The notes under the pieces were generated by a model, which was not told where the DNA came from, searched no databases, and worked only from the letters and a program-made list of their open reading frames with translations. Both the position numbers and the translations under genes were made by a program. A stretch of DNA of 60,452 bases, counting the filler, from Sluysia triapertura (taxonomy: Eukaryota): assembly GCA_046118255.1 (NCBI GenBank). It is 4 parts of 4 records of this genome, joined end to end, with 100 filler letters (N's around TTAATTAATTAA, not from the genome) between each part and the next. Parts side by side here need not be neighbours in the genome. Positions count along the whole stretch, not along the records: positions 1 to 17,445 come from JBJNIA010188609.1; positions 17,546 to 29,890 come from JBJNIA010117973.1; 2 more parts are not named here. The stretch is one strand, 5' to 3'. Positions 6,701-58,258 of this stretch are shown one piece after another. Position 1 is the stretch's first letter, and each line of letters opens with the position of its first letter.

Positions 6701-9700
6701 GGTTATTGTGAAAAAATGTAATTGAATGTTAAATGTCAATTGAGTTTGATTGTTAATCGAGTTTTGGTTGATGTAGATCATTTGTTTATACCTTTGAAAT
6801 AGTAGTATAGGAAGATATGTGGGTATTGAAATGTATTGTTGCAATGTAATTGTCTTTGTTAATGATATATTAATAACTCGCTTGTTTGTTGTGTAAATTG
6901 TTGATAAGTTGTCTAGTTCACAAAAACTTTAAACTGTTACATGTGGTTACTAATCAACTTAGGTCATTAGTAACTATTGTTCTTTTTGTATTAATATATC
7001 CTTTTTGATTTTTAATTTTAGTTTAAGGAATAGTATTGAATCTGAATAGATGGTTGCATTTTTTAATTATTGTACTTCCATGATGTCATTTACATGGTAA
7101 TAAAATTAATAAGTAATAGTCATTTAATATCATTTGAGTTTTAACAAATTTTAGATGTTTATAAAATTTACGGTAATTCCAAATTAAAAGTACTTAATAT
7201 AAAATAGAATTGTTTAAATTCTCATTAATCCATTTCCATTAAATTTAATTTATAATCAATATTTATTGGAATAAAATAAAGAATCAACATTTAATATTAA
7301 AGGATTTGGTTATGGGAATGATTGGAGATAAATTGAACGCAGTATCGTGGGAGCAGCGAGTTATAATTTGCCGCAGTATCCCAGTGATTCATATGCATGG
7401 AGAAGACAATGTACGTGGATTGAAAAGAAATCTTGTGAATAAGTTAATTCATATGATGTGGAACGATTCTCATAGGCAAGTACAAATTGCTGCTAGTGAA
7501 GCACTTGGTCGTACTGGCAATGGTAAATTGGTACATGAGGAATTATTGTCGAAGTTGATGGATTCAAATGAACTAAAAAGAGTCGATGTTCTTGAAAAAA
7601 TTGGAGTTTTAAGTATGAATATTTTATTCAAATATAATATTTGAAAATATTAACTTGTAGTAGGCGAATTTATAAAAACTGCAAAGTGAGCTGGAAACCG
7701 ATTTTTTAAACTCAACGCTCCTTACTTAAACCATTTTGTATGACCAATCATACTGTTCATATTACTTTTATATATAATATCTGTCTTTTGAATTAAATTT
7801 TATAATTGTTATATATATATATAACATTCGTTTATTTTGACCATTAATTTAAATGTTAGATTAAATTAACATTCGTACACTAAAGATTAAGTATGAATAA
7901 TTATAATATTTATTACATGTTTAAAATTGTATAATAAATTTTAATATTCAAAACTATAACTTTAATTTTTTTATTTCTTATTAATACGTTCGCTGCCAAG
8001 CAACACAAACTAAAGTTCCGACTACGAGATAACAGCGTACATTTTAGTGCTAAATAAATATTATTGTTTTTAGATACAATTTCTATATGTAAACAATATT
8101 TGTTGGGTTCCAAAGAAATTTTAAATTGTACGAAATTAAATTAAATCTATTTTTAAAATGTTAATTTGCATTTGTTTTAATTGCCGCTTGTTGTTTGAAT
8201 CTATATATAATTTTCACTATTCTTTCGATATTGAAAAGCAACAATATTTAATTTTTTTACAAATAAATAAAAATAAATCCTGAATAGATTTAGATAGAGA
8301 CACAAAATCTCTCTATTGTGTTCCTAAGTCAAATGACAATTTCTATGTTACGAAAAGACTGATGCATTGTAGTTGATCTTATGCAAACTCTTCCTTACGT
8401 GGACATGGTGTAATTATTAATAACTTCATATGTAGCGCATATTTTAAAATGCGCAATTCCGTGACGAACTGTTCAAGATGCTCTTATTATTGAAAGATAA
8501 GCTGTTGTAAAAACAATTATAGCAATAATAATAATAAACAATTTTAGTAACTGAAACTGTTTAAAAGATTAATTTATAGTGAAGATTAATAAGAAAAAAT
8601 AATTGTTAAATAATGACTATTTTAAAAAGTGTGATTTCGTATGACTTATGAAGGTTATGGATTCTCTAAATTGAGAATATTATAATGGTAGCTGAACTTC
8701 TATTGTTCATGTTGGGTGAATATTTCTGAATGTGTTAAATTTAGGTTTTGACTAATTCTCATTATTAGTAAAGTATCTTAAAATTGTCTATTTTAATCGA
8801 CTGATGACATAAATATAATGTATTAATTTCTTTAGAGCACTTTTATGAAGAATGAATAATAATGTGATATTAAGATTAAAAGACTAAATGATTCTGATCA
8901 TAAAAGAGGCTTAGGTGAAAAATTATAAATAATCATTTTAAAATGCATGGAAGATAAAATAGGAATTTCAATGATGCCTTTATTGGAGGAATAATAAAAT
9001 TGAAGTTTTTGGGCTATAAATGAAGTGTAACATTTAGAAAAGTGTATACTTTGAGAATAATACATTCACGTGAAACAATAATCATAAAATTTCATTTAAT
9101 AACAGTAATTATAAGTTAAATCCAATAAATGTTTTGTTTTATTGCATGTCTAAATCGTCTGTTAAGCACGAAACATCTACAAAATGAAAATATTTAACAG
9201 TGATTTAATGAATTTAAAAAAACAAAACGTTTGAGTAAAACGATTATGAAAAGAAAATATATTGAGATAATAAAAATCCTCAAGAATTCAGATGTGTAGT
9301 GGTCAACATTTATAACGCAAGATTTTAATACAACACTTCTAAACTTAATCTCATTAAAATACAATTTTCCTAACAATTATATCCATTAATTCACAATTTT
9401 AACATTACATATCTCATAAAATAATAATACACAATCATAACACCTCACCAACTACATTCAACAACAAATCAACCTATATCTCATACATTTCCAACTCAAT
9501 AAACTTTTACATGCAGTCCAAACAATTCATAACAATTACTCATTAAACACTTCACTAAACAAGTCACAATCACAACACAAACTTCATAAATCATAAACAC
9601 AATAACAACACTCAAATAATGCTAATAAACATTTCAGAAACATAGATCATCTCGCCTAAAATCATAATCAACAACAACCGCCCAAATCCACTTCACATAA

Positions 9701-12700: not shown

Positions 12701-14574
12701 TGTGAGTTATCACACATTGGTTTGATTTAAATATAATTCAGTTTCGAATTTCGGTTGAGATTTATTTCAATTTCAATGCCTATCACAGACTTTAATTGCA
12801 TGAAACTTAAATTATTTTTGTTCATAATTATTATTAAATTTAATTTTTAATATCGTAAACTTTATGTTAATAGGGTCAAGATCTACCTTAGACAAAATCA
12901 AACAATTCTATAATGAAATGTGTTAAGACTAAAATGATAAAATTTGAGTTGAATTATAAAATTGGTTTCGATTGCTTCGTAGTACTGGCGGAAAATTTTA
13001 ACATTGTACCTAGATCGTACCCACATTGTCATTAACTTTAACATCAACTTCTAGAAGAATATTTTCAAATTCTGTTTTATTAATTATTGATCGATGTTGA
13101 ACAAGTAACAAAACAATTCCCGATTTTGTAAGTTTTTTGAATTTAAGCTAATTTTGAACGTGAATTCAGCACTTTTCCTAAATCGTATATTCGTACGAAA
13201 CTTTTTTAAGAATCAGTCAAAACATACTCTAGTTTGATATCACACAATGACATGATGATGCATGTAAATTAGTTGTAAAACTTCTGAGAAATAAGTGCCA
13301 TCTTTATTTTTATCACGTGAAAAAAATACTATTATATTGTGACAATGATTTCATGATATCTTATTCTCCGTTTTTATAACGTTTATTTCCAAAACTTTTT
13401 TAAAGAACTAAATTATTTCATGTATCGAAATAATTACTCGAAAAAGAATAGAACACTTTATCATTAACGTAATATTTATTCATTTTTAATTTAATACATT
13501 TTCATAACAATAAAATTATGCTTTAAAAATTTCGATTTTCTAAATGTTTCTTACCACATAATATTATATTATTTATTTTTGTACTACTTTTATGTAGTAA
13601 TTAGTAAGAATTATTCATTATTTAAACTTAAGAAAAATATCAAACGAAAAGTAATTTTGATATAAAAATAAAACAAATAAAATATTATTATAGTTTTGAA
13701 AATGAAGCCTAGATTAGTTTGAGATTGTAAATTTACATCTTAGACATAAATATAACTTCAAAGCGAAGATTATTATATTTCGTTATTTTTATATAAAAAT
13801 ATTAATTTTATTAATATTATAATAATTTACTTTAATTTACAAAATCAAACATTGTTATTAGAGATATTAACAACTCGTATGATGCCAGCATTTTGTCAAT
13901 GTTTTCATGACGAATATGTATCAGTTCGACGATCAGTATGCAAAACTTGTATTTTATTGAATATTCAAGACGAATTTTGTATTTCTGAATTACTTCAATT
14001 AGCAAAAGATGATCCAGATTGGAAAGTCAAAGTGTACGCTATGAGAGGTTATTTTAATATCTTAACAATGATTAAAAAGTAACATTAAGGTAGTATTGCA
14101 ATATACATTGCTTAAACCCTTAATGCACAATTTTTTTAAAAAACCGACCACGCCCGTGTTAATACATTTCTGCGCGTTAAGGGGTTAAAATAATTGAAAT
14201 TTATTTGTTTTTGAAAATATTAAATTTAATAGTTTGAATTATGAACAACATGAATATCGCAAAAAAATGTTTTGAAAAAATAAAAAATATTTTCAAAATT
14301 CTTCTTTTTATGAACGTATTTACTTTTAAATTCAGCGTATAAGTTTAGATTGTATTATTTGATTTAAATTTACTTGCAATTAAGCTCTTTCTAAAACAAA
14401 TGTTCAAAAAGAAACCATAAAAGCATGTTTAACATGGGCAGCTAGTTATGAAAGCGATCCACGCATTCGTAAAGAAGCTTTGGAATATTTAATTCATATT
14501 CAGATTAATGATGAAGAATTATTAGAACTTTTACAAAATCGATTTTTGGTTGAAGATGATACATCTATTACAAA
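800..14574 (+). CDS. HEAT repeat-containing protein (HEATR4-like), multi-exon, 5' and 3' ends unresolved
   Basis: Five phase-compatible GT-AG exons: 800-979, 1719-2068, 7303-7612, 13862-14047, 14385-14574. Translation gives successive HEAT-like repeats (DSHPTIQKVASVAL; DRWAAVQCL; MWNDSHRQVQIAASEALGRTG; CFHDEYVSVRRSVC; DDPDWKVKVYAMRAL; YESDPRIRKEAL). HEATR4 assignment is from recalled similarity only. Confidence 0.8.
2194..2219. repeat. (GT)n microsatellite
   Basis: Direct reading. Confidence 0.95.
4006..4457 (-). pseudogene. Diverged MSP-domain (VAP-like) gene fragment inside a HEAT-gene intron, antisense
   Basis: INPPLELKFKGPLSSIVTSHL...MCYKLKTTAPKMYRVRPNSGFIEP matches the VAP MSP signature (LKFKGPF...VCFKVKTTAP.RYCVRPNSG). 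There is no in-frame ATG upstream. A possible GT-AG intron at about 4156-4200 extends the frame to TGA at 4006-4008. Confidence 0.75.
4910..5150 (+). mobile_element. Family A right-end segment (GT-rich arm ending CGGCTGAACACCACA)
   Basis: Aligns with 20655-20873 at both ends: AATGACGAGGGGATGAC vs AATGATGATGGGATGAC, and TAGTTGT..TTTATGTG...TCGGCTGAACACCACA vs TAGTTGTTATTTATGTG...TCGGCTGAACCACTACA. Confidence 0.65.
6189..6922. mobile_element. Putative small non-autonomous TGT...ACA element
   Basis: Imperfect termini TGTGAAATTAGA / TCTAGTTCACA, AC-rich left half and GT-rich right half. No TSD seen. Confidence 0.35.
10553..11656 (+). CDS. Family A copy 1 ORF1, 367 aa: N/S-rich N-terminus, CBP/p300 TAZ1-like helix, five 19-aa repeats, unknown C-terminal domain
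   Basis: Long intronless ORF in AT-rich DNA; contains DPKKRKLIQQQLLLFLQMH. First ATG is 10556 (ORF track starts at TTG). Confidence 0.6.
   Translation: MMDSQPLPDNYLNSHNVNNCRTAKTAVTVQYVNQPIISNVKRNYTYVSNPSVVDDSLILNTLNSSSDLQFESDYSLNDNLLSQHNVKVKNKDMTNINSVTDRRNNYISANSNQSTDPKKRKLIQQQLLLFLQMHENPIFSLTSSISNDVMIMHENLLFSLTSSISNDIMMMHENLLFSLICSISNDIMMMHENLLFTLTSSISNHIMTMHENSIFNLVSSNNNDVMTIFLEIFNVILSIKDKISVSSFMPLNTNDIKMIILETHKDDQVNVRILNQYCLVMRSGLYKRGNFQSISFNDYETMSRQSIILENDVFDVMCSDVVGMTKERRSKHRYIAFDKNVTNFATDTEMYHLITLLNSFMRNCRYG
10949..11233 (+). repeat. Five tandem 57-bp (19-aa) in-frame repeats, MHENxxFSLTSSISNDIMM
   Basis: ATGCATGAAAA recurs at 10949, 11006, 11063, 11120 and 11177. Confidence 0.9.
11649..12092 (+). 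CDS. Family A copy 1 ORF2, 147 aa, unknown; +1 frame overlapping the ORF1 stop
   Basis: ORF track; this frame is open from 11613. Confidence 0.45.
   Translation: MVNIFELQSYQFIFYHVCIYFIDNNFIDSESNRAEIQNDGEYLKELVILETIPKTITSFNVLIDINYGLFYKLKFDGVNVKILFNKLSNILIFSFKLNPDNNHCKTKIYKINTQRYFEVLNLKLRLNVTINYSKTSKIINFFFLKTN
14116..14184. mobile_element. 69-bp piggyBac-type MITE
   Basis: TTAA on both sides (14112-14115, 14185-14188); TIRs CCCTTAATGCACA / TGCGCGTTAAGGG. Confidence 0.7.
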
Positions 14575-15617
14575 GTAAGTATTATTTTTGCTTTATAAAT
14601 TGTTATAATGTCGATTAGCTCAATTATAAGTTACATTGTTACCATGTAAAATAGTTTAAAGTTTAAAAAATATAATTAAAGTTCAATGAAAGTTCTATTT
14701 CGAACTACCATGAAGTTCCGTCTTGAAATAGCTTTGAATTATGATTACCTAAAAAATAACTTAGTTATTTTGAATTAACACTTTTAATTTGAAATTATTT
14801 TCTAAGTTTAACCACTTTTTATCAATTCATATTTTGACTTTTCGTATAATAATTATTAAATTTATTTAACGGTATAATTTTCCTTCTAAACAAAATCGTG
14901 GTTAATGTTAAAAGATTTTTTCATAAATTATACACGTAGAATTAGACAAAAGCCTTAACAATTTGGATAATAGCGAGCTATGCATACGTCTCACTGAATT
15001 TCTGAAGTTCTCGGCTCAGTAAAAATACGTTCTCATTTTATTCACATTTAGATGTAACTTTTTTATTATTTCAAAAATAAAAAATAATTATTTTATGGTT
15101 TTTTCCCCAAAAAAATTTCATTTTTCATATCTATACATTCGCCATTATTATGGTGCTCAATCATCAACATAATTAAGAAGGTCATCACAATCACCCAATC
15201 CACGTCAGCTATGATCAAGATGTAGATAAAAACCTAAAGAAGATGCGTAGTTTGCTCAGCAAATAGTAGAGGAAAGGATACTCGATATATGTATAAAGAT
15301 TGTGATGGTGCTTCAAAAATTACCATACAAAACTTCATTTTAATAATTCTCATTCATTTCTCTAATAAATGAAGTTTTAAAATTGTTTTATTTTTTCTCA
15401 AAAATCTATGATTTAAACCTAGGATTTAAAACCACTACAAAATTTTAATGGAAAGAAAAATATGGAATTAAAAACTTTTATTTAATTAAGCTAAAAAATT
15501 AAATATTTATTATTAAACGGGAAAGGCATTCCTTAATTTACGAAAATACTGTATTGTAATAAAAGTTATCTTTGTAGCGATTGTTTACTTCATTTATGTT
15601 ATAATAATATTCTTTAA

Positions 15618-16468
15618 CCCTTTAAGCACGGGTCACATCAATAAACGTTTTTGCGTAACTTCCGCGATAGCCGGATAGTCGAATAACGCTTATTGCCACT
15701 GTGTATATGTAGAGTATGCGTTGTTTATTTATGTTAGTGCTTGGTTATATCAGTTGTATGCAGGAAATTTTGTATGATAGGAAACTTTTAGATTTGTCTG
15801 TAACACGTCTACTCCGGACTAAACTATAATTATGAATAAATAATTTACTAGTCTCGTTGTTTCATTACTTTCGTTCGGATTTCTACATTTTTCGAAGTCT
15901 GTCGTTATAGTCATTTTTATACTATACCATCAACTTCTCGCGTCCGCGCTTCGATGATTCCGACAGTGATGAAAAGGAATACTTGAGTGAAATAGAGAGA
16001 GTAATGATCGTAGTGATACTATCAGTGACAATGATGAAGAAACAGTGATAGGCAATTTTACTTAGCGACATGTGAAGAGTTTCACAACGAATTTTTTTGC
16101 GAATCTCACATTGCGAAATATAACTGTACCGAAAGGTTTTGATTCTTTTTATTCTTTGCAAATAAAAAGTTTAATTAATAATCATTATTTTACAATTTTT
16201 ATTACCAAAGCATTGTTAACAGTATGAGAATTTTTAAACCCCATTGTTCCAACTCAGAATTACTTAACAACTAAACATTTTTTTAAAAATTAAAACTGTG
16301 AAGATAATCTATAAATATGCAAAATTACTTTCACTATCAAAACTATTAAATTTGATTTACAAATATCGCTGAATTGTTCACTGAATAAGATTCCATAGAA
16401 ACGTTTTAAGTCGTCAAATGTAACCCAAACCCAGAATATAAATTATTTTGCTGATAGGTTTTAAAGAG
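15618..16468 (+). mobile_element. Internally deleted piggyBac-like element
   Basis: TTAA|CCCTTTAA left end; acidic DDSDSDEKEYLSE...SDTISDNDEET remnant at about 15950-16050, typical of piggyBac transposase N-termini; degenerate right end TTAAAGAG|ATAA. Confidence 0.5.
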
Positions 16469-17329
16469 ATAAAAGAAAAATTCCCAACATACTAAAAAAT
16501 TATATTATTATTAAGTATGTGATGTTGCCTGATAATGTTTATGTAATATTTAAATTTGACCATACACTTTCATTTTTTCTCAATAATTATATGTTATTTT
16601 TACTTCGTTTCGGTATTGGAGATTTATGTTTATTTGTTGTTTTTGTTTATATATAGACTTTTAATTTATTTATTTAAATCTTAAAATCTTTCAAAGCTTA
16701 AGAAACACAAAAAATAGAATTAATTTTCGAAAAAGAAAATTATTTTCCAAAAAAGAAATCGAAAATTCTAGAATTATGATTGGATGGTGACTGTTATATA
16801 TATGTTAATATTGGTTTGATCTGAATCACAAAATAAATACAAGAAAAAATTTTAATACTTGGAAATGTTTGCTATTACGAATTGATTATAATTTTCGGAA
16901 AATAATTTCATCAATCTTGTGTCTGATTTAAAGTCCATAAATCAGTAAGTTTAATTTTTGTTAAGGTGAGTAAAACTTAAAATCTAATTTAAAATCCATT
17001 TTAATAATTTTAAACTCTGATTTAATGAAGTATAAAATCTATTTCTAAAATCTTCTATCTTTCGTATATCTTGCTTATACAGTTGTACATTTTGAAGAAA
17101 TTATCAGTATTGTTTGTTAATAAAATTTATTTAATACTTGTGTTTTTTGACTAATTCTAAAGTAGACCATCTACATTTACATTGATTGTGTTAAGACTCA
17201 CCATTTAAGAAGCTACATTATCAAGAGCTACTAATATAATTTCTGAAGATTCGTTTGAGCAAAGTCTAAGATCTACTAGAGTAAATATACGTACGGCATA
17301 TAAAGTACATTGAAGGATAAGAAGTTAAA

Positions 17330-17444
17330 AGTTACACTTAACGATTTGTTATTTTCTAGTTACAGGATCGCCTACTTTACGTTGTAACCGAACCCTACTA
17401 CAATTTATTTTCCCGAAGGTTAAGAGTTAAGAATACTACAGTAT
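17330..17444 (-). mobile_element. Family B terminal fragment
   Basis: Reverse complement TACTGTAGTATTCTTAACTCTTAACCTTCGGGAAAATA matches the family B end at 27593 (TGCTGTGGCTTTTCTTAACTCTTAACCTACGGCAGAATA). Confidence 0.6.
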
Positions 17445-17445
17445 A

Positions 17446-17545
17446 NNNNNNNNNNNNNNNNNNNNNNNNNNNNNNNNNNNNNNNNNNNNTTAATTAATTA
17501 ANNNNNNNNNNNNNNNNNNNNNNNNNNNNNNNNNNNNNNNNNNNN
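17446..17545. other. Assembly gap with artificial TTAATTAATTAA spacer
   Basis: N-run/TTAATTAATTAA/N-run of 100 nt; same construct at 29891-29990 and 46316-46415. Confidence 0.95.
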
Positions 17546-18259
17546 GCAACAACTACAAATCATACATTGTATATACCCATAGCCGTTGCTTCTTCACAGT
17601 CAATCTCTCGCTTTTCTTTTACCTATTATTTCATATATATGTTAGAAGGCTAAAAGAAATAAAAGAGAAAGTTCGTGTCAAAAAATTCTAAGACATTCAT
17701 GCGGTTTTATTTTTATGACAATAATAATAATAATAACGTTACTACTGTCGTTTTTATTATTATTATTATTACTTTTATTATTATTATTATTATTATCATT
17801 ATTATGTATCGTTCTCATTATTATCATAGCCATCATCGCCTTCATTGTTGTACCTAAAAAATTAAAATTAAAAATTAAACAAAAATTAATTTTGCTGTCT
17901 AAACTAGTTGTCACCATCACCAACGATGACAGCTTATTTACATTCTCATCACGCTGTCACCGTTGATGATGGTTGTTAGCCAGTCATCAACATTTCAATC
18001 AATTTTGAACCTTACTAACACTCCACCCAATCAGAAACAACATTGTTAATATACCAATCACTAATATGATTGGGTGGAGCTGAAATTAAGAAAATTAGCA
18101 ATCAAATAATCATTGAAGTTAAAAATAGCATTAATCAATATCACAATTTTATTAGTGTCTTTGTAAATACTCAAATTTCAACTTCATTAATGGTTTTAGA
18201 TATTAACAAATTTCAATTACTGGTTTTATAAATAAATTTCAATTTCATTACTCCTTTGT

Positions 18260-18565
18260 ACATTTAGCACGATATTAATAGACATTTACGAAGTAATGAT
18301 GAGACAATTCGGTGTACCTAAGGACGAAAATATTATAAAGTTCATAAAGATTATTGAACCAACAATTACATTTAATCCCATATTATTAGACAGTTATGAA
18401 ATAATGACGAGACAATTTGGTAAACGTAAAGATGATAATGTTATAAAGTTCACAAAGATTAACGAATCAACAATTACATTTAGCGCGATATTATTAGACA
18501 ATTATGAAATAATGATAAGACAATCTGGTATACGTAAAGATGAGAATGTATTAAAGTTCATAAAT
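18260..18565 (+). repeat. Nearly three tandem 108-bp (36-aa) in-frame repeats
   Basis: MMRQFGVPKDENIIKFIKI... / MTRQFGKRKDDNVIKFTKI... / MIRQSGIRKDENVLKFINN. Confidence 0.85.
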
Positions 18566-19993
18566 AATATAAAGCTATTCGAGTTAATTATGTCACCTGA
18601 TACAGTCATGTACAGAAACGATAAATTTAAACTCAGTCAAGGTAATGTTTTTGTATTAGATTTTTATTACTCTAATTATTACATTGGGCATGTATTTATC
18701 ATTTATAACAGTTTTATTATTTCAGAAGCTAATGAAACTAGGATCCTGAAAGAGGGAGGGTGTACAGAAGAATTTTCAGAATTCAAAAATTTCCTTACCA
18801 ATATCTTTTTATTCAATATCGCAATATATAATTATCATTGTTATCTTTACAAATTTAATTCTAATCATATAAAAATGAAAAATAATTATAATAAGTCATC
18901 AATTTTCAATATGTCTAAGATTAAAGTTATGGATAAAGTAACAACGACGATAACTAATATCCATAAAAATTATATTGAATACAATAGTAAAGTTTTTAAC
19001 ATAAACATAAGATTATGTCCAATAATCATCTACATGATGATAACAAAAGTAATAAACTCTTTAGTTCTCGAAAACTTGAGAAGTTTTCGTGGACAAATCA
19101 CTATTTACATAGTAAATGACAGATATGTACGGTTAATATCTAATGAGACTAAGCCCAAGGCCATCCGAGACAGATATAGGTGTCAAACTATAGACTACAA
19201 GGCACATTGCCAAAACATTGACACCATAGGCACACTGGTACGTTGAGTTTCTATTCCAATCAATTTTCCTTTTACTTTAGTTAGAAATAAAATTGATTTC
19301 AATTCACAAACATTGTCGGAAAATAAAGTAATGAAGTATTACAAAGATCATAATGATGTATATCATGTTAAAGTTAGTATTAAAAGTGGATATTGTGTTA
19401 AAAAAGCTTTTGAATACACTGTCTACATGACATCATTGAAATTAAAACAACTATTATCCAAGTCAACAAGAGAATTACATTCCAAAACAGATATGATATT
19501 GCTTTTGATAAATACTTGGTTCAAATCAGATACGTTTATGTTAACCAACTTAGACTCAAATAATGTTTTTGATCTCTTCGAAGTTTTTAATGTCAACTAC
19601 TTATCAATGATGTATGTGGAACCTATTATACATAGCGTTTTTGACGATGATTCTTCTCAAACTATGCAAGCACAGTATGCAGAACTAACTAATGTCAAGG
19701 CAGATATTTACTTAGATGACGAAACATTTGGATCGAAAGTCGGCACATCCAGGATAAAAATAATTAACATTCAATGTAATTTTAATAAATTTTTATGTAG
19801 TTATGGTTCATTTATAAATTGTTTTATATTTCGAAAGTCACAACACAATAAAGAATTAAGACACGAGAATTTAATTAAGATTTCAATTTCCTTTTTTAAA
19901 TTCAATCTAAAATTCTATAAAATTTTACTCTCAATTCAAAATTTAAATAATTATATTAAACGACAACGAATTTTCAAACTTCATTTTAACTAA
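18296..19993 (+). CDS. Family A copy 2 coding region: 316-aa and 226-aa ORFs in one frame separated by a single TGA (19244-19246)
   Basis: No other stop between 18236 and 19993 in this frame; N-terminal 36-aa repeats; no recognised domain. Confidence 0.55.
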
Positions 19994-21965
19994 AGGATAT
20001 TAAAAAATTTTTAATATATAATCCCACATATTGTGTAGACCTCATTTTAAATAGAGGTTTAAAATCAAGTATTAAATTAAACTAATCAGTTTAAATATAA
20101 ATGAGCTATATTTAAATCTCTTAGTGATACATACAATTTGAATTGGTCAAGGTACGTTCTATCATGGCACATTTTGAAATAACAATAATAAACTTTGATA
20201 ATAAACTCTGTCTTTTATGAAATTCATTATTAAAACTCAGATTATTATCCACGTTTATAAAAGTATTAATTGTATGATCATGACATCATTAATATCCCAG
20301 CAGATAATGTCGGTAAAACATAAGTCGTCTGATAACCAAACTGATACATCGGTACACTACGTTGATTTTGAACTGCCACTTCATGTGCATCAACATTTTG
20401 AAAATTTGAATCGGTTGATTTATTGTTAAAGAATTTTCTGCTTACCCATTTTCTTTATTCATTTTAAAAAATTTTGTAAATGTATTTTTGGTAATAATGT
20501 CAATGTTTTGATCAACTTTTGTAGGTTAAAACAAAATACAATATTAACATAAAATATAAAATATTAAAATATTAAAATGAAAAATTATAAAAATATAAAT
20601 TATAAAAGTACAAAATTATAAAAATATAAAAATATAAAATTACAATATATGTATTGCTATAATGATGATGGGATGACCACGGAGATTATCTTTACTGTAA
20701 AACTTGGAGATAATTATAGGTTTATAGTTTATGATCTTGTAGCTATAATCGAAATGTAATGTTGAAAGTGTACTATTATGGGATGATGTAAGTGAGACAT
20801 GTGATAAGGTTTTCGTGTAGCTGCTAGTTGTTATTTATGTGCAGTGCACGTAGTGATCGGCTGAACCACTACAGTGCGTTATAACAATCATCGGACACTT
20901 TCACATTTGAAGAACCATAATATTGTGACTATATACAGTCAAATTAGCATTAGACATAAATTAGTATTACTGATGACCATCCTAGCTATTTACAAAACTA
21001 ATTTACATCTATATTCTGCAAAATCCTGTGGTTAAGCCATTCTGTAAGTTTTAGATTAGAGGTGAATTCATTCATAATTGTAAGCTATCGTAATTAAAGA
21101 AATCACATCATAAATTTGGTGCCAAGATTGAGGATCAACATTCAAGAATCAAATACTAAATTCTTATTACGTAAAGACATATTCGTAATGAAATCAACAA
21201 AAATTTTAAACGAAATTTATGATCCGTGATATATTGTGTAATACAGCAATTAATTTACTAGTAAAATATTTTTTAAAATCTACTACTACTACTACAACTA
21301 CTAATACTATGTGAATACGAATTAATTAATTAAATTCTAAATTAATTATTTTATCGTAACAATAATTGTATTTGTAAATAAAATCTGCATAATATAAAAT
21401 ATTATCATTTTAATATAACAAGAAATTTTAAATAATGGTTGTTTTTTATAATAATATTATATTATTATGCTACACAACTGAAAGCAGAATGCTAATTAAG
21501 TAGATTATTTTATTGTTTCATCTTACATTAAATAACTAAATCAAGTTATTTCGCTTTGACATCCAATGAGTTTGTAAAATATACCATCAATTCGAAAATT
21601 TTCCAATTATTGTGTTAAATAAAAAAGTTAAGAAATCACCGTTGCATCTATGTTTTTTATCCTGGTGGCGAATTAATACTATTTTTCAGGCAGCATACTT
21701 CTTAGGCAAAACAAATTAGGATAATAAAATAAGTATGAAACGAATGTCGGTAGTGAACTATTGTTAAAATGATTAATAATTTCTGTTTCTATAAATAATT
21801 TTTCCAATAATTGAAATGACTTGGTCGTATCAGAAATATAAATAACATTTATATTATAATATTGCAGTTAAATTTTATATTTTTATTTCTTACACTATTG
21901 TATTTGCTTCAACTTTATTTGTAATTTAGTTTATTTTTGCTAGTTTAATTTACTTTCATTTTATA

Positions 21966-22290: not shown

Positions 22291-24777
22291 AATGAAGAAT
22301 ACGATTAACGATCCGAATGGTTATTCGGTGCCAATTTTGAAAAACGATCATCAAATAAGTACCAAGTGTACCTTACCTTACCATTAGGAAAAGTTATCAT
22401 TATTATCATCAAAGATAAAATGAAAATTCTTTTCCAAAAATACAGTCTCAATTATGATACAATCAAGCTCATTTGATATACGAAACTGTTTGAACAATTT
22501 AACAGACATTTTAGAATTCGAGTTAAAATAACTAACACAAAGAATAAAAATGCAATATTCTCTAATTGTTAAAAATAATTTGTTAAAAAAATTAATTTTT
22601 TTAAATAGTTGTATATATTAAGTCTTTATTTAATATATTTAATAACATCCATTTGATAACATCCAGGAAAATAACATAAAACCTTGAGACAAAAGGAAAC
22701 ATGCAAAATTTTGAATTTGTCTAAAAGAATTTGATAAAGCTTATGAGAACGTTGTTTGAAAGTGCCTTATAACTTTGCTACTTTTTTAATTAAAAAGCAT
22801 TTATATGTTTCATTAAAAGAAAGAATTATCTGAAATATATAACCTCAGAAAAATATTTTTCTATCTACTAAAGATTGTAGAGGAAATTTTGCTTTATCTT
22901 GAATGAATAGTTTTAAATCACTAAGGGATACATAATTAAAGAAAACATACATAATAATGATTACGGAAACGTATTTTCTTATTTAGTTTTTGTGGAAATA
23001 GTAAAAAGTAAATAGAAAGAGAACATTACATGACTGAACAAATTTTATAGAAAATTGTTGTTGTTTTACTTACATTAAAGACAGAAAATAATTTTGGCTA
23101 CAACATTATAAAATGATATCGTATTATTAAAAAGAGAAGAAACAATTATAAAGAAATAATAGTGATAATAATGCTACTGATAAAATAAGGTTACTATCAC
23201 TATGGAAAATCCGACACTTATGTTATCATAAGCTACTACAATTAAAAGATCTATATTTAGGATTCAAGTGATGATGAAAAGTTTGTGTACAGTTCCGGTT
23301 TAAGATTATTTAATATCTTTTATAATACAATCTTGACAGAATTATTGTTATTATTATTATTATCATTATTATTATCTTATGTGATATTTTATAACAGCAT
23401 TTATTATTAAAATGTGTTTTTAATTTTTAAAAAGAGCGGTATTATTATTATTATTATTACAGGGTTTTCATATAATTTAATCCTGTTGTCAAATAATTTA
23501 AGCATTATATTAAAGCATTTAATCCTTCTTAACCAAAAAGTATGCCAAATATAAGAATAGCAAATGAAATTAGAAGATATAATTTTATTGAATTATATAT
23601 TATAATTAATTTCAAAAAAGATTAAGTTATATGACAAAAGGGTTAAATTATATGAAAAAACTTGTAAGTTGTTAGTGATTGTACAATTTGTAACTTATGT
23701 AATAAGATCAAGGATTAAAATAATTAAGTATTAACAAAGTTACTAGCATCGTTTATATGCGATGTATCAGTTCTTGCAAATGTGTGACGTGTCTACATTA
23801 TCATTTTTCGATAAGATATTGCCATATTTTTCCGCAGTTAAAAAATCCAATGCCATTTAAAGTCATTGTGTTGTACAAGATTCTCTTCTCAAGCTGCAGT
23901 TCGTGTAATTTGTTAAAATAATGATTTTTGTGCAACTTTTATTCAACTTTTTTACTTTAACTTTCTTAAACTTCATCGAATGACTCAATTAAGCGACGTT
24001 TTATAGCCTTAATTAAAGACTATAATAAAACTTTTACGCATTCAGTTCTTCAATTTTGTTAATGATCCAGTTGAAACGAAGTACGGTTTCGATAAGCAAG
24101 ACGTGGGTAGACTTTCGATGTTAATGGCCTGACCAATAAGAACAAGTTCAAAATGAAAAATTCATTCAAAGTTTGTAATTGTAGTGATGCATTCTCAAAT
24201 TAACACATTTATAAATCCATACAATACTAACAACTTGCAATTATTCTTCATTACATTTCCACATCACCATACACTTACATTACAATAACTTCCTGTACGA
24301 AATCTACACGCATAATAATTCATATAAAATCATGTATTTACAGCAATTACCTACAATGTTACTCTTATCTTCTATAACCTTAATATGTACCAATCCAATC
24401 TAAAATTATAATTTACAGTTGGTTATTACCATTACTCTTACTACTCTTGTGGCTTAGAAAGCACAACATATCTCTCTCTCACCATTAAGTGCAACTCGCA
24501 CAATTACATATAGGATAGAGACCTCAAAATATATTCTAAAATATATTATGTTATTGATAATTTACGAACCAATCGTTTATGCTCTGCCATTATGATGTTC
24601 AAAAATATTAAGTACTTAATCTTACTTCTTGTAACTTCTACTATAATATCAAATTGTGGGAAGAAACTTATTTATTTGCTTAAATCTTTAAGAAATACAC
24701 AAAATTGATTAGAAATAGCTTCTAAAAATTGGTAATATAAATTAATGTATAAGTTATTTCTCTTAAATTTTATTCAA

Positions 24778-24858: not shown

Positions 24859-26165
24859 ANNNNNNNNNNNNNNNNNNNNNNNNNNNNNNNNNNNNNNNNN
24901 NNNNNNNNNNNNNNNNNNNNNNNNNNNNNNNNNNNNNNNNNNNNNNNNNNNNNNNNNNNNNNNNNNNNNNNNNNNNNNNNNNNNNNNNNNNNNNNNNNNN
25001 NAAAGTAAGTAAATTTTATTATTTTCATTGCGGCATAAAGCCTCATTTAAAAAAATTTTAAAATTAGTCAAATATAGATGACTTCAAATAGCATGTTCAC
25101 TCGTCAAATTGTTTGTGATGTATTATAAAGACTGTTCTAATAATCAGTCGATCAAAGATTCGAATATATTCATTCATTAGAATATTCCCACCGAAAGCTT
25201 GTATTTTTCACGGAAATCAAGCTGAACAAACGACCATGCGTAAAATTAGAAATCGAATTCCCAAATGTATATATATAGTATATCAATCGAAATGATGTGA
25301 AACAGTGGTGTGATCGAACACTTTATTGTTTTGTTATGAAATAATAACTTTTCACTGTGTAACATATTTTCTTTATTTCAGTTTGGTAAGTACGTATTCG
25401 GCACATTTCAATCAATTAATCAATTGAATAATTATTTGAGTGCTACTAATTTTGTAAATAATCAGAATAACGAGCTCGATAGTTATTTTTATCAATCCTT
25501 TTGAAAAATTTCTTTAACATATGAAAATAAAGTCGGACATTAAATGTCTTAATTTGCATGCTCCATCAAAATGATCTTTCCAAGTTTGCCCTTTTGGGAT
25601 ATACAACTAAATGATATACTCTTTATACGTATACGAACCCACTTTACCGAAGAACAAAGTAAATATCTGTAGATCAAATAAAGGTTTCCGTAAAATGACA
25701 GTAACTAGCTTCAAAAGAAAGTTGAAATTGCGTATTATTTTGTGTACTTCTGCATCTCAGAAAAGGTAAAAACCATACATAATAGAATTAGTTGCAACCT
25801 CTTTGAGCAGATCTGCCAATCAATTTCGCTAATGCTAATTAAGCACGACAAGTTCCACATCTCTTACAATGCATTTTAGTTCTATTTTATTAAGATTTAA
25901 TTTAAAGTATAAATTATTATTCAAAATAATTCTTAATTCTATTCACATAAATGTTTTATTTTTTTAAAAATAATGACTTATTTATAATTTATTTTTTCAC
26001 AAAAGATTGCAATTGTTTGCATTTAGTAACAAATTACTTTAAAACAATAATTATCGTTATCAATTTGATTTATGTGAGTAGACGTCAAATATTATATTGC
26101 ATTCAAGATTTCATATTGAAAAAAAATTGTGAATTATTTGAAAATAGCATTTATTATAGACTTAC

Positions 26166-26701
26166 TTTGCAAAACCTTCATATAATTCCATCGGTAAGCC
26201 TGTCATAACTCCAGAACCATCTCCCGTATCATTATCACAACTGCATGCTCCACGATGATCCATCCTTATCAACATTTCTTTGGCTCTTTGAATTATCTTA
26301 AAATACAAAATCATAATGCAACAGAAAAATTAATTATAAAAATTTAAAACAATAATTATATTATATTCCATATTCGAAAATAAGCCATTTCTAAGGACAA
26401 CATTCTTGTGATAATTAGAGTTTAGAACAAAAATGTAAAAATATTTGTTGCATAAAAATTTAGCAAAAAATACTTTTATATTCGTTATATAATAATAAAT
26501 TATTCAAAAAATTTAACTAACATGATTACTTCTATTTCCATTAACAGCGACAACAAAACCAACTCCACATGCATCTTTTTCTAATTCATTATTATATAAA
26601 CCTTTCGTTGCTGGAATTGAAGAAAATATTCCACATTTTTCATCACCAATATTATCAGAAACAAGATCATTATTGTTGTGATACTTGTCTTTACCTAACA
26701 T
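26166..26701 (-). CDS. Glutamate synthase (eukaryotic NADH-GOGAT type), first two exons only
   Basis: Exon 26522-26701 (ATG...KGLYNNELEKDACGVGFVVAVNG) and exon 26166-26296 (IIQRAKEMLIRMDHRGACSCDNDTGDGSGVMTGLP) give the Ntn-amidotransferase N-terminal motifs CGVGF and HRGA...GDG, with canonical splice sites. Confidence 0.9.
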
Positions 26702-27592
26702 TGTTTAACATTAATTCCACTATAGAAAAGCAAATTTGGTTACAATTAAATTAGAAAAATAATTTATAAAATCTCTAGACTAATCATAAAACGACCTTCA
26801 ACAAACCAATGATATTTTTACTTTCTATCAGCATAATGTAACTATCTTTAATAATGATTCTATTTTTAGATTGCGATTATTTTACCTGATTTTTAATAAC
26901 AAATATATAATGAATAATGCAAAAAAAGCATTTATTGAATTTTATTTATTACTTTATTGATTTAAATTGTAATTGTAATTTAAATTTTATGATTTCAATT
27001 GACTTTATTGTATAATAAATGCATTATATTTATATTTCACAACTTCTCTCTAACTATGGAGATGTTAGTGCAAATTTTGTAACTAAATAATTCAAATTAA
27101 TGAAAATTTCAATTGAAACACCTATTGTATTATTATTCACAATTAAGGTGTTGTGGAGAAATCATTACTTATGCTAACTAATCAATAACTGATTTTTTAG
27201 AATGAATCCTTGCTCACCAAGAAATAGTTATTTAATTTGGATCTGGAAATCTAACTGAATAATTAATACATTTGGAAAATTAAGATGTTTCTATATTGTA
27301 AGGCAGGAATGGTCAATAAGACAAATAATTGAGCTAATATTATCTTATTAAATTTTTTCAAATAAATTTTTTATTAAATATTAATACAAATTACAAAATA
27401 TTTAAATTATATGCTGTGGTTTTTCTTAACTCTTATTTCTAAAATGGTACAAACTTAAAAATTATCGTAAATTCGATGTTTAGCCTCAATTTAAATTAAA
27501 AATTTACCACTTAATACTCGCTAATTGCAGTTTAATCTAAAAATTCTACGTCAATAGCAAACTTAAGTTGGTCCCAATTCGGGCGCCAAATT

Positions 27593-29391: not shown

Positions 29392-29640
29392 AAATACCAA
29401 ATACCTTTGACTCGAACAGTAATTATATACCAAATGCCTTTAACTGGAGCAGCAGATACCAAATACCACGTATCTTCAGCGAACAGCTTCTTCTTCAAAT
29501 ATCTTCTTCAATTAACAACTTGAATACCAAATACCTTCAATAAATAACTTGAACAATAATCGAATACTAAATAACAAATAACAATACCTAATACCTAATA
29601 ACCTCAACAGCCTGAACAACAATTGAATACCAAACATCTT
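29392..29640. repeat. Degenerate tandem array of ATACCAAATACC-containing units
   Basis: ATACCAAA(T)AC motif recurs about 6-7 times with irregular spacing. Confidence 0.6.
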
Positions 29641-29769
29641 CAACAAACAACTTTCATCATAATCTAACTTGAATGATTGAAAATAACGCTTCGTTCCATA
29701 ATAACGAAATTTTGTAATTTTTGTAATACATATACTGAAATTACTTTTTTGATATTATTTCATTTACAC

Positions 29770-29815: not shown

Positions 29816-30669
29816 ATAACAAAAAAAGGAAATCACACAAATTAATATTTAAATTTTAATAATCGATAATACAAATAATTTTTATTACGCNNNNNNNNNN
29901 NNNNNNNNNNNNNNNNNNNNNNNNNNNNNNNNNNTTAATTAATTAANNNNNNNNNNNNNNNNNNNNNNNNNNNNNNNNNNNNNNNNNNNNCCTTATTACC
30001 GTTGCTCCTTCACAGTTTATCATTCGCATTGTTCATCTCTTATTTTATTATCATCTGATATGTAAGAGAATAAAGATCACAACAGAAAAGATCATGTATA
30101 CAGAACTATAAGACTTTATGTATTTTATCTTCATTTTTATTAAAAGTTTTATAACAATAATAACGGCAAGAATTTTATCACTTTATTATTATTAATATTG
30201 TTATTATTATTATTATTTTCATCATTATTACTGTCGCTATTATTGTTAATCATTTTCATAAAAATTAATTTAATTCAACTTTGTCGTCACCATCATCACT
30301 AGTGACACTTAATTCATTCTCACCTGCACATCACTACTGATGATGATGGTTAGTAATTCAAATTAGAATTCACTATACTATCGCCCAATCAGAGTCCAGG
30401 TTGTTCTCATAATGCTAAAAACACTCTGATTGGGCAAGCTACAAAAATGTCTAGATGCTAAAAATAACAATCAGAGCGTGTATGTCTTACTTCATTAAAA
30501 GTTGCTCTGATTGGATATACTAATTAGAGAACAATAAAATTTTATAGCTCAAAGAAAATTTTTCTACTCACAATTTACAATTTTCATATAACAAAGTTCA
30601 GCTCTCAAATAGATTTCAGACACAATTATTAAAGTTTATAGCTCTAAATTAAAAAATTTTACAATTAGA

Positions 30670-31116
30670 ATGGACGTATTTAAATTTGCTAGACAGATAT
30701 CTCTTGAATCCAAACGAATAACGACATTGAAAAACAAAAATCAGTCAAACGAGGCAGATGAAATGATTGAACATGCAATTTATGAAATGATGGAACATTT
30801 AAAATTAGTGAACCTATTAAGCATGCTTGAAAATGTCATTCATTGTATGTTTAAAATAAACAGTGAAATTAATGAATTGCCTAATAATGAAGATTATCAT
30901 CGATCAGATTACAGTAGTTATGAATATCCAAAGAATGTCATTAATAAATTCAACTTATTCGTCTACGGTAGTGAACATATTTTGTTGAGTAGTAATGCAA
31001 GAAGTTCAATCCGAAACTTTATAATTAATAACATTAGAGATATGCATACATATTATATTGATGAATCAGATTCCATCCTCATGGATAAATCAAGTAAATT
31101 AAATTATAAAGTATGA
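30670..31116 (+). CDS. Family A copy 3 ORF1, 148 aa, unknown
   Basis: ATG-initiated intronless ORF directly after the palindromic leader. Confidence 0.5.
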   Translation: MDVFKFARQISLESKRITTLKNKNQSNEADEMIEHAIYEMMEHLKLVNLLSMLENVIHCMFKINSEINELPNNEDYHRSDYSSYEYPKNVINKFNLFVYGSEHILLSSNARSSIRNFIINNIRDMHTYYIDESDSILMDKSSKLNYKV

Positions 31117-31213
31117 TGCAAATAACAATAAATTCGTTGCGATTAAAGAAATATTTCGTAACCTGTCGGTATTTAATGCAGACGAAACATTATATATTGT
31201 TAGAAATCCCGAT

Positions 31214-32161
31214 ATGACGTTTAATTTAAGTGATATAAACGAAACTCGGAATAAACATAACTTACTAACCACGTCAAATCAAAACGGATGTAATCTAAAT
31301 GATTATAAAGCTAATGCGAACCATGTGCTTCAGATTTATTTACCTAAGGATATAGACGTAACGAAGATGATTAATGTGAACAAGAAATTATACATTCACA
31401 AAATTAATTGGATCCACTTTCTTTCGGCCAACATTAGAGTTTATTATCGGATAAAACTAATTGTTTTTTTTGTTAGTTATGAATTTAATTATTTACATCA
31501 TTATTTTTTAGTGAAATCAATTTTAGAATGGATCATAGAACGACGGGCTACCAGATTGGAAGGTTCTCACAAATTCCTTATTCTTAATATAAACTCTTTA
31601 AATAAAATTTTGGTGTATTATAAAGTTTTTGATTTATTTAAGATTTGTGTAATTGTAATTTTTATAAATAAACATTTTGTCAATCCAAATGATCAAAGTA
31701 TAAAAATTAAATATAATGTGTCCCAAAAATCAAAAGAATTGACAATTATAAATTATCACAATAATAATATTAATTGCTATTATTTTATTAAAAAGTTTAA
31801 GACCGTCTTAGGAATTTTTCTAATTCAAGATAACAACGTGCTAGACTATAGAATTCTATTTCCTAAATCTTGCTATATTAAATACAATTCCTTTGTCGTA
31901 TTTTCATTTTTGCTTCCGACTTATAATGCTCCTTACTCTATCGAACCTGATAATGTGTCCTCAATTTTACCTTGCATCACGATTGTAACCATATATCTGA
32001 ACCTTATTTGTTTGAGAATCAAATGTGAAATTTTAATTAACAAATTAATTATGAAATCAAACTGTGTAACGTATTTGTTCACAAACCAGTACTACAAAAT
32101 TTACATTTTAAAATGGGCTCTGAACATAATTAACTCATTAACACTAAATTTTATACTGTAA
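31214..32161 (+). CDS. Family A copy 3 ORF2, 315 aa, unknown; +1 frame, open from 31103 and overlapping the ORF1 end
   Basis: ORF track plus manual upstream extension (DANNNKFVAIKEIFRNLSVFNADETLYIVRNPD). Confidence 0.5.
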   Translation: MTFNLSDINETRNKHNLLTTSNQNGCNLNDYKANANHVLQIYLPKDIDVTKMINVNKKLYIHKINWIHFLSANIRVYYRIKLIVFFVSYEFNYLHHYFLVKSILEWIIERRATRLEGSHKFLILNINSLNKILVYYKVFDLFKICVIVIFINKHFVNPNDQSIKIKYNVSQKSKELTIINYHNNNINCYYFIKKFKTVLGIFLIQDNNVLDYRILFPKSCYIKYNSFVVFSFLLPTYNAPYSIEPDNVSSILPCITIVTIYLNLICLRIKCEILINKLIMKSNCVTYLFTNQYYKIYILKWALNIINSLTLNFIL

Positions 32162-46415: not shown

Positions 46416-46650
46416 TCAAATGTGGATATTATTTTGTTGCTATGGATGTCGAGTTACATGTTTTTGATAGATTTGTTGGTGTAAGTTGATGGTATTAGAT
46501 GTAAATGTGGTTTGTATATTATGAGATTGTGAATATGGCTTAGTTTAGGCAAATGAACTGTTTTGTAAGTGTGTGAATATCAAAGTGTTTAAGGTTTAAT
46601 TAATTTTTTCTTTTAAAATTTTAAGTTATAAAGGTTGTCCACTAGACACA
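46416..46650 (-). mobile_element. Family A left end (reverse orientation), running into a gap
   Basis: Reverse complement TGTCTAGTGGACAACCTTT; 46480-46532 aligns with the reverse complement of about 56545-56600. Confidence 0.6.
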
Positions 46651-48799: not shown

Positions 48800-49220
48800 T
48801 AATGATATATTGATAATTTTAATATTCATTTTGATAATAACAATGATAAAAATAATGAAGGTGATAATAATAACTATAATAATTATAATAATGATAATTA
48901 TAATTATGGTTATAATCATAACAATAGTGATATTAAGAATCATAATTATAAAAACAATAATATTAATAATTATTATTATAACTTTAATTATAATTTTAAA
49001 AATAATAATTTTTATTATAATAATTATGGTAATTATAATGCTTATAATAGTAATAATGATGTTCGCGATGATAATGATTATAATTGCAGTGATTATGATT
49101 AGAATTGTGATAATAATAATAATAATGATAATATAATATTAATTACAATAATTGTAATTATTTTAATGATTATAATTATAATAATAATCATTATGGTAAT
49201 ATTAACAGTAACAATAATTT
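48800..49220. repeat. Degenerate (ATA/ATT)n low-complexity tract
   Basis: About 400 bp of imperfect trinucleotide repeat that generates the poly-Ile ORFs. Confidence 0.9.
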
Positions 49221-56300: not shown

Positions 56301-58217
56301 AGCAGTAAAATTTGATACATTTTATAGTTCTAAGTGCTTTACAATGTGGTGGCCAACCTTTCACCTTTAATAAATTTTATTAAAACTTTTCCTTTCAACA
56401 TAACACTCACCTTCAAAATATGCCTTTTACATAAAACAATAAATTAAAGCAACACATTGTATATAAAACCATACTTATAAACATTCCCATATTTATCTCT
56501 TTTACACCTACTAAAACATCTTCCTCCGTCAAAATCAATTAAACCCACAATCTCATAACATCCAAACCACCATTACATTCAAAACCATTAAATTACATTA
56601 AAAAATGCATCTAAAATATTTTATTTTCATTTCTTAACAATTCAATCACAAGCACAGTAGAGATCAGTTAACAGGCATCTTCAAAGCAATCTAAACATCA
56701 TAAATTCACGATCTTCTATCATCAAATCCTAACAATCAAACATGACCTTCTATCAAAACACTAATGCACATTTATCACTAATTTTAACATTCATACTGTT
56801 CTAAAATACTCAAGTTATAAGCTTTTACACTTCAATACATATCATTTTAATTCTAGCTCTCGAATATGTTAAGAAATACACAATAAAGAAAGAAAAATCG
56901 TGTAAATTCAAAGTAAAGAAATTTATATTTTTGTTTTGAAATCCAGGCACCTTTTGTACGAAATAATTATATTATTGATTTGTTATTATTTATTGTATAA
57001 AGATATATATCATTCAACAGCATTAAACATTTTAATAATTGGTATCCTAAATTTCTAGAAATTCAGCCACTCTATATATTCTTTAGTTATTTCGTTCCCA
57101 GACAGTGATAGTGTTACTCATCGTCAATATAAATAGTTTGTTCACTAAAATTTTGATTATTTACTGTAAAAAGATTATAAAATGATGTCTATTCTACGAT
57201 CAAGATATTTCGTAAAAAAGGAAGCATAAAAGTCTTTTAAGTGCTACAAGACATATTTCGAATTGTAATACAGATGATAGTGGGGTAGATTGCATTCAAT
57301 AAGATTTAGTATGTGCAAATCGTGTTGAAACGATATTTATTTGTAAAAATTTGTGAACAATTATTTTACAGTTCAACAGCTCATCATCTATTAGATGCAT
57401 TAATCAATAATCCTCTATTTCCTAAAGGAGATTTATTTCATGCTACTAATAGATATTTGATGTTCCTATTACAATTCATTATGTTTAAATTGTAGTTCAT
57501 CAGACTACGATGGAGCTAAAAAATTAAGTGTCAATGTATCCAATGATATTACTTTGCAATGTTACAATCCAATATTTTCAACTATATATAATCTACCGGC
57601 CACAATGTCTATTCCGATTAAATGTTTATATTTAGGTCTTATTCCACCGATAATGTTTTTACCACGTCTTAATCTACACTATATTCGTAATTATAGTTAT
57701 CTTTATCGAGATGTCATATATATGTTTATAGTTAATAACCAGACAAGTTATTTACTTAGTATCCTTACATTACTGGATGTGACAGCAATTGCTGAAATTA
57801 ATTCTTTTCACGTAACCACGACGATCAAAAGTAGAAGGTTGATAATAGAATCCAAAATATTTATGAAAACAACAAATCCCCTCGGTATTGTCAACATGTG
57901 TTTAATATCACATAAGTATAAGTTAAATAAGCAATTAATTCCATGCCTTAATGTTGATATCTGTGGAAAAGAAAATTTTCAATTTGTTTGCACCTCTATA
58001 GATTTCTATACAATAAAGATATTATTTCCTAAGAAAATCACGTAAATGTAACGTTATAACTTGTATGTTAAGTCAAAAACAATTAATCGAGTATCACCTA
58101 CCAATCGTTCCTTTAACTGGTCCTAACTGTCGACAACATATGCTTGGAATCGTGGACACTTTCCTATTCTCATTCCAGTTCAACGTAGCAACGATAGTGA
58201 CTTTCAGGTGATAGTGC

Positions 58218-58258
<41 letters not shown>

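Follow-up and report, generated by a model that had tools for sequence, protein, structure and literature searches.

A repeat family in Sluysia triapertura with the features of a gene-capturing mobile cassette whose passenger frames appear to stay open while their amino acids drift

The capture of genes by mobile elements is already known, and captured frames usually decay or gain constraint at the protein level. Retrocopies mediated by long terminal repeat (LTR) elements are, in the passages of PMC5131818 that describe them, sense, in-frame chimeras with several parents. Ginger DNA transposons, according to passages of PMC2836005, have terminal inverted repeats (TIRs) that measure 40-270 bp in Ginger1 and 50-180 bp in Ginger2, and a 4-bp target-site duplication (TSD) at CCGG/CCGT or RTATAY. 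In planarians, passages of PMC10954484 report that SMEDWI-1 converts poorly translated RNA to PIWI-interacting RNA (piRNA), which provides a translation-coupled filter in stem cells. Here, we analyze a repeat family in 60,452 nucleotides of Sluysia triapertura DNA (assembly GCA_046118255.1), a stretch of four joined parts referred to below as the window. With a probability of roughly one half, we read the family as a non-autonomous, gene-capturing mobile cassette, copied through RNA by Gypsy-type machinery, whose passenger frame is kept translatable while the protein is not kept. Its copies are called c1 (from 9293/9295), c2 (from 17546), c3 (from 29992), and c4 (from 56345); coordinates are collected in Table 1.

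A leader common to c1 (9978-10400), c2 (17546-18079), and c3 (29992-30513) was found by BLASTN, with E values of 6e-35, 1e-29, and 8e-14. In each of the three it is composed of an inverted repeat (H1), an ATATGT block, a (TTA)n spacer, and palindromes H3 and H4; identity in the H1 region is 97% across 69 nt, and the left part of the c2 leader is lost in an assembly gap. Folding z-scores from -3.5 to -5.8 were obtained for H1 (c1), H3 (c1, c2), and H4 (c1, c2, two in c3), while H3 of c3 folds weakly (z -1.7). The H3 arms covary, with CAACG on both arms in c2 versus CAGTA on both arms in c1, and the H4 arms likewise change in step within each copy. H4 combines two CCAATCAG words (CCAAT boxes) in inverted orientation, and we take the word to be the NF-Y consensus; all seven matches to CCCAATCAGA lie within an H4, versus 1.25 expected. 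The CCAAT pair is predicted to be a promoter, and long frames begin 98-159 nt downstream of it. We conclude that the repeat family sharing this leader is real. A preliminary description of the window had fitted four copies to one layout. The leader part of this layout held for c1-c3, but c4 has the left end, the AC-rich arm, and the ATATGT block only, and H1, H3, H4, and the inner (TTA)n are absent from it. Its coding stretch is about 0.9 kb, not the 1.5-1.7 kb once ascribed to every copy. Nor can 9295-20873 be treated as a single unit, as had been proposed, since exons of a host HEAT-repeat gene (13756-14082 and 14384-14575) lie between.

Evidence on what is selected comes from block M, a segment shared by c1 and c2, which emerged from a comparison at the DNA level (137 bits, with the best control scoring 54) and is sharply bordered. 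Over its 143 codons the two copies are 59% identical in nucleotides and 27% identical in amino acids. Differences at codon positions 1, 2, and 3 affect 62, 57, and 55 of the 143 codons, respectively, differences per codon follow a binomial distribution, and the ratio of nonsynonymous to synonymous substitution rates (dN/dS) is 1.14. Neither copy contains a stop, versus 8.4 and 7.2 expected (P(0) of 0/3000 and 0.0003), and the five other frames contain 8-24 stops. The main diagonal was the best one in 13 of 13 windows along the alignment; BLAST favors two compensating 1-nt gaps separated by 22 nt, and there is at most one such pair, whereas the rate in seven non-coding repeat blocks, 17 gap openings per 265 mismatches, would predict about 11 gaps. 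Saturation of third positions is not seen: position 3 is unchanged in 62 of the 96 codons with a difference at position 1 or 2 (background 0.32). When compared with a neutral null without stops, the BLOSUM score was 129 versus 168±24, and amino acid identities were 39 versus 45±4. Block M thus shows no amino acid conservation above the neutral model and no net frameshift. Since the copies are 41% divergent, change their amino acids in a neutral-like manner, and have no stops, selection appears to act on the openness of the frame and probably not on the protein.

The same data bear on the possibility that the cassettes are expressed host loci for real, fast-evolving chimeric proteins selected in place, with the leader being a promoter spread by an older element. 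A dN/dS near 1 may average positive and purifying selection, the tandem repeats inside the cassettes have ratios of 0.4-0.5, and long open frames behind a CCAAT pair are what such loci would show. In block M, however, neither conserved codons nor conservative changes are in excess. AlphaFold2, run on the two-sequence alignment of block M, gave a predicted local distance difference test (pLDDT) of 39, which is weak evidence, and protein searches found no relatives. In addition, a Rab piece in the cargo lacks its N-half, a CBP piece is a single helix, and the copies are located inside introns of other genes, with one or two breaks each. We consider this explanation improbable.

Whole cassette bodies are nearly open as well. 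Breaks per kb amount to 1.1 (c1), 0.6 (c2), 0.6 (c3), and 2.2 (c4) versus 12.5±3.2 in 208 windows, figures flattered, to the detriment of our reading, by the placing of open reading frame (ORF) limits at stops; the 14 lowest-break windows are all on cassette bodies. The longest frames in 30 shuffled windows were 83-156 amino acids, versus 336-368 in the cassettes. Both internal tandem repeats have 3n periods, and GC at codon position 1 is 0.22-0.36 in the cassettes versus 0.38-0.53 in six of seven host exons. Every 1% of unselected change should create 3.4 new stops in the 1979 cassette codons; it follows that the frame was retained as the copies diverged by 27-40%. Ordinary decayed repeats beside pseudogene debris would account for broken frames, missing ends, and the partial c4 leader. 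Against this explanation stand the deficits of stops and indels and the lengths of shuffled frames, and it is contradicted by the block M stop test unless a frame-specific mutation bias exists; we regard it as the least probable of all.

The cargo, judged from sequence matches, appears to be scraps of unrelated host genes in mosaic frames. Pieces of CBP/p300, Rab7/9, and VAP are each sense, in frame, and placed in a long frame reading away from an arm. The CBP/p300 piece improves to E 0.003 with a 57-amino-acid query picked afterwards; CBP/p300 proteins were its only PDB matches, and the helix runs on into the 57-nt repeat. The top matches of the Rab piece are all Rab7/9/5, and 19 of about 63 residues (counted from the match) are identical to human Rab7; we take the piece to be far more diverged than a working Rab7. 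The c2 cargo thus reads 108-nt repeat, block M, and Rab7/9 C-half, in that order. That cassette proteins barely align, as had been reported, is true, mostly since they are unrelated: of 171 ORF pairs compared, only c1 ORF b and c2 ORF a align convincingly (z 9.3). Three other pairs (z 2.6-4.8) were not accepted, and the pair of the c2 tail with c3 ORF a (z 4.8) had no DNA-level match. Searches with c2 ORF a (0/1011 candidates) and with the block M alignment (0/155) returned no relatives, the ESM Atlas gave nothing usable for block M and c3 ORF a, and c3 ORF b had nothing below E 1 in PDB. Four matches from a representative-ORF search were rejected, each being a tandem-repeat protein that scored no more than 7 bits in any stretch, and so was a viral fusion glycoprotein match of a c4 ORF (E 0.006 from a duplicated chain alone, each stretch E 6.8). 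Given unrelated host scraps and a block M without protein-level constraint, the proposed spread of a rapidly diversifying protein family is not upheld, and nothing in the analysis supports a virus-segment-like system.

Several observations concern the junctions of these frames. In c1, an ATG opens block M 5 nt ahead of the ORF a stop (ATGGTTAA, 11649-11656), a layout that would allow re-initiation. In c2, block M is bordered by good splice sites, with a donor (AG|GTAATG) and an acceptor (TTTAG|) separated by 423 nt, which is divisible by three (18642-19064); neither site is kept in c1, and the segment could be a stop-free in-frame intron or reflect chance. Intron candidates bridge three of five ORF junctions; such candidates also occur at 69% of random junctions and are therefore uninformative.

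Two types of cassette ends could be distinguished: left (9293/9295, 56345, and 46650 on the minus strand) and right (20873 and 5150). Left ends 9293/9295 and 56345 are related, each through 46650 (z 5.7 and 7.6), and so are the right-type ends (z 10.7); the ends are sharp, since flanking sequences are unrelated. Of two isolated ends recorded before, the one at 5150 is of the right type, whereas 46416-46650 turned out to be of the left type, lying on the minus strand, and not a right end. The left and right termini have TGTAGTGGT in common, 9 identical inverted nt, extending to 12/13 with one gap (TGTRGTGG); beyond these terminal 9-13 nt, no pair of left and right arms reached z>2. The right-end layout, a GT-rich arm ending in ACA after the ORFs, had been assigned to all copies but was found in c2 only, and at 5150 a coding-like chain begins directly behind the arm and reads away from that end. 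For these two reasons, the right type may be a far end, a sister start, or both, and TGT and ACA are at most candidates for the two ends of one element. The layout is indeed a composite, as the preliminary description had recognized.

These termini bring in the main rival, a non-autonomous Pack-TIR-type cut-and-paste element with Ginger-like TG...CA ends, in which the arms would be two ends of a 4-kb unit, scraps would come through DNA template switching, and open frames would be kept since badly translated transcripts would trigger silencing. The shared termini agree with it, c2 closes with the inverted terminus, no second LTR was found, and TGTNR, as given for Ginger in passages of PMC2836005, is present at four of five accepted ends (9295, 56345, 20873, and 5150; 46650 has TGTGT). 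Pack-TIRs also occur in animals (passages of PMC8277862). However, the shared terminus is far below Ginger TIR length, only one of four copies has a right end, and end flanks lack CCGG/CCGT and are mostly not RTATAY (TATA at one of five ends). Moreover, every identified scrap is a coding piece in sense orientation and in frame, a pattern not predicted for random capture of DNA. We consider this rival rather unlikely. Helentron-type (HINE/DINE-1) elements, in which rolling-circle read-through captures adjacent DNA, would explain a sharp conserved start, a microsatellite spacer, palindromes, and a missing far end. Such elements insert in TT with T-runs at their boundaries and have 12-15 bp subTIRs and a 3' stem-loop. 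Capture by Helentrons has been proposed (passages of PMC4067079), and a hairpin is predicted at the 20873 end (z -1.5). It is missing at 5150 and at the left ends, however, no T-runs flank any of the five accepted ends, and read-through does not explain sense, in-frame, stop-free mosaics, which makes a Helentron origin very improbable.

Three further end candidates were considered. At 2260-2270, TGTGT is preceded by ACTC, which agrees with the 4 nt that flank the 5150 end (chance probability 0.1), and a far end of the 5150 unit is possible there. A decayed left-type end and arm followed by half an H1 (TGTGAAGCAGC) at 6547-6922 (minus strand) is tentative (z about 2). A left-type end at 24180 (plus strand) was rejected (z below 2). 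More AC-rich, arm-like tracts at 24180-24400 and 29400-29700 (plus strand) and at 2400-2600 (minus strand) have no significant similarity to cassette arms.

In our preferred reading, an arm that begins with TG and a putative CCAAT promoter would stand ahead of a long mosaic frame made from host-gene scraps. The leader would transcribe the cassette, and its RNA would be copied in trans by Gypsy-type reverse transcriptase and integrase, gaining scraps through template switching onto host mRNAs. LTR-type template switching fits because of the TG starts and the sense, in-frame, multi-parent cargo. Copies whose RNA has early stops would be removed by translation-coupled surveillance, and each copying round would thereby filter for an open frame. 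Whichever protein it encodes, an RNA that can be translated would benefit the element, above all if it also serves as the template for copying. That the family is a gene-capturing repeat is very probable, and the RNA route stands at about even odds. The non-autonomous, trans-mobilized expression cassette with TG-starting ends that had been suggested earlier fits this anatomy. It is possible, though less likely than not, that the passenger frame is a passport rather than a gene, such that any ribosome-readable sequence is accepted and untranslatable copies are destroyed by RNA surveillance.

A number of results weigh against the RNA-copied, frame-filtered cassette. No copy has both ends, and young copies should show far ends, yet three of four show none; no direct terminal repeat stands behind any cargo, and no direct copy of arm or leader was found behind c1, c3, or c4 up to the next host exon. 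No TSD was detected at the end flanks in the window, and flanks examined had no primer-binding site or purine tract, which a solo unit would lack too. The window contains no tRNA gene and no enzyme. The frame-only test is based on one pair of copies, and block M in c1 is out of frame with ORF a. The two tandem repeats have dN/dS of 0.41 and 0.49, not distinguishable from the null and leaning to constraint. Every copy is interrupted once or twice, and the 5150 unit is interrupted seven times. The putative PICALM/AP180 piece of c3 ORF a (30823-31023) is weak (E 0.34, 4/7 matches).

Table 1. Features of the cassette family and of host genes in the window.
Feature	Position	Strand	Evidence or setting
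c1 left end (TGTGTAGTGGTCAAC) and AC-rich arm	9293..9965	+	in HEAT-repeat gene intron
c1 inverted repeat H1	9970..10032	+	fold z -4.2
c1 ATATGT block and (TTA)n spacer	10049..10200	+	
c1 palindrome H3	10249..10310	+	folding, arm covariation
c1 H4, inverted CCAAT pair, predicted promoter	10341..10399	+	motif matches, folding, arm covariation
c1 ORF a, 368 codons, first ATG 10556	10550..11656	+	
First helix of CBP/p300 TAZ1, clipped, within c1 ORF a and in its frame	10889..10957	+	E 0.098, whole ORF
57-nt (19-codon) tandem repeat in c1 ORF a	10948..11235	+	
c1 ORF b, holds block M	11613-12092	+	
Block M, c1 copy, inside c1 ORF b	11655..12083	+	
c1 ORF c, overlaps ORF b in different frame	12059..12343	+	
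c2 leader: half H1, ATATGT block, TTA spacer, H3 17913-17973, H4 18021-18079	17546..18079	+	
c2 ORF a, 336 codons	18236..19246	+	
108-nt (36-codon) tandem repeat in c2 ORF a	18259-18564	+	
Block M, c2 copy	18644..19072	+	
c2 ORF b	19247-19993	+	same frame as c2 ORF a, one TGA between
Decayed C-terminal half of Rab7/Rab9-type GTPase, start of c2 ORF b	19244..19486	+	E 8e-4
GT-rich arm and end ...GCTGAACCACTACA, right type	20650..20873	+	9-nt exact inverted match to left terminus
c3 leader: half H1, ATATGT block, TTA spacer, H3, two CCAAT pairs	29992..30513	+	
c3 ORFs a (167 codons) and b (352 codons)	30613..32161	+	no relatives found for b
Left-type end and arm, entering assembly gap	46416..46650	-	
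c4 left end, AC-rich arm, ATATGT block	56345..56925	+	in bromodomain-gene intron, other strand
c4 chain, three overlapping ORFs	57310..58208	+	no accepted relatives
More decayed coding-like chain directly behind 5150 arm	3442..4914	-	
VAP MSP-domain piece in 5150-side chain	4287-4451	-	E 6e-14 and E 2.5e-15
Second right-type arm and end ...GCTGAACACCACA	4900..5150	+	
Host HEAT-repeat gene	exons 1637-2089, 7249-7644, 13756-14082, 14384-14575	+	Pfam
Host multi-bromodomain gene	53948 to 60271	-	Pfam
Glutamine-amidotransferase exon	26165-26329	-	Pfam GATase_2

The window has a GC content of 25%, seven assembly gaps, and intron-rich host genes. The 5150 end, like c1, lies inside an intron of the HEAT-repeat gene. 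Pfam was searched with 137 stop-free frames of at least 55 amino acids, minus three microsatellite frames at 48756-49138; in agreement with the preliminary description, no DDE, reverse transcriptase, Rep, or recombinase family was matched by these window ORFs. Pfam matched no CCCH finger either, and there was no Rfam match within the window. Two 5' exons at 26165-26720 (minus strand), one with the Pfam GATase_2 match, look intact, and no further exons were recognized downstream; we presume the gene to be glutamate-synthase-like. Cassette starts meet gaps at 17446, 29891, and 46316, as expected if high-copy repeats collapsed in assembly. A second repeat family has inverted arms at 27594-29145 (plus strand) and 33043-34137 (minus strand), with blocks 72-81% identical, which enclose c3 and resemble a foldback or long-TIR element without a clear target duplication. 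Further starts of it, at 17440 (minus strand), 27413, and 32590 (both plus strand), begin with GCTGTGG/TGTAGT and have a short inverted repeat about 20 nt inward. TTAA-flanked CCCT ends at 14115-14190 and 15615-16500, without Pfam support for piggyBac, have a pattern that we take to be like that of a piggyBac miniature inverted-repeat transposable element and a decayed piggyBac remnant, respectively.

A frame that stays open across 41% nucleotide change without protein constraint would allow selection for translatability to be told apart from selection acting on the protein. If true across the family, this would provide a direct test of whether translation-coupled piRNA or nonsense surveillance shapes the cargo of selfish elements, and would show how long expressed ORFs arise before function. 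Should any ribosome-readable passenger indeed be accepted, the family would be a prolific source of random chimeric proteins that are expressed and from which new genes could arise. A literature search, which covered sources other than Repbase, paywalled papers, and supplements, found no description of the family or of frame-only selection in captured cargo; the family may already be in a repeat library under some name.

Among described systems, LTR-mediated retrocopies resemble the cassettes as chimeras of element ends and host mRNAs, sense, in frame, from several parents, and with a TG start. In the portions of PMC5131818 concerned, they are flanked by direct LTRs, of which the cassettes show none, and 14 of 21 older copies lost their frame, kept frames having low Ka/Ks; block M, in contrast, has kept its frame although its copies diverge by 41% and dN/dS is close to 1. 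Pack-TIRs and Pack-MULEs are likewise non-autonomous and carry host fragments, and the cassettes possibly share short inverted termini with them. As characterized in passages of PMC8277862, Pack-TIRs have transposon halves on both sides plus a TSD, are mostly single copies, and have a median cargo of 224 bp, unlike the cassettes with their fixed promoter-like leader and 1.5-kb open mosaics. Ginger1 and Ginger2/Tdd have the TGTNR termini seen here, but the inverted terminus of the cassettes is 9-13 nt, Ginger target preferences are not observed, the window holds no transposase, and the passages of PMC2836005 concerned with these elements describe no gene capture. With the Helentron-type HINE/DINE-1 elements of PMC4067079, as far as its relevant passages go, the cassettes have in common a non-coding conserved start, a microsatellite, and palindromes, but not T-rich termini, and a 3' hairpin is predicted at the 20873 end but not at 5150. 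Burro elements, giant planarian Gypsy elements with host-like domains (passages of PMC6431247), could have supplied the machinery, provided that the organism is a planarian; the cassettes differ from them in having no gag, pol, or confirmed env. Because defining features tested for Ginger elements, LTR-mediated retrocopies, and Helentrons are lacking, the cassette is not classed as a member of these families. We conclude that it works like known gene-capturing, non-autonomous elements.

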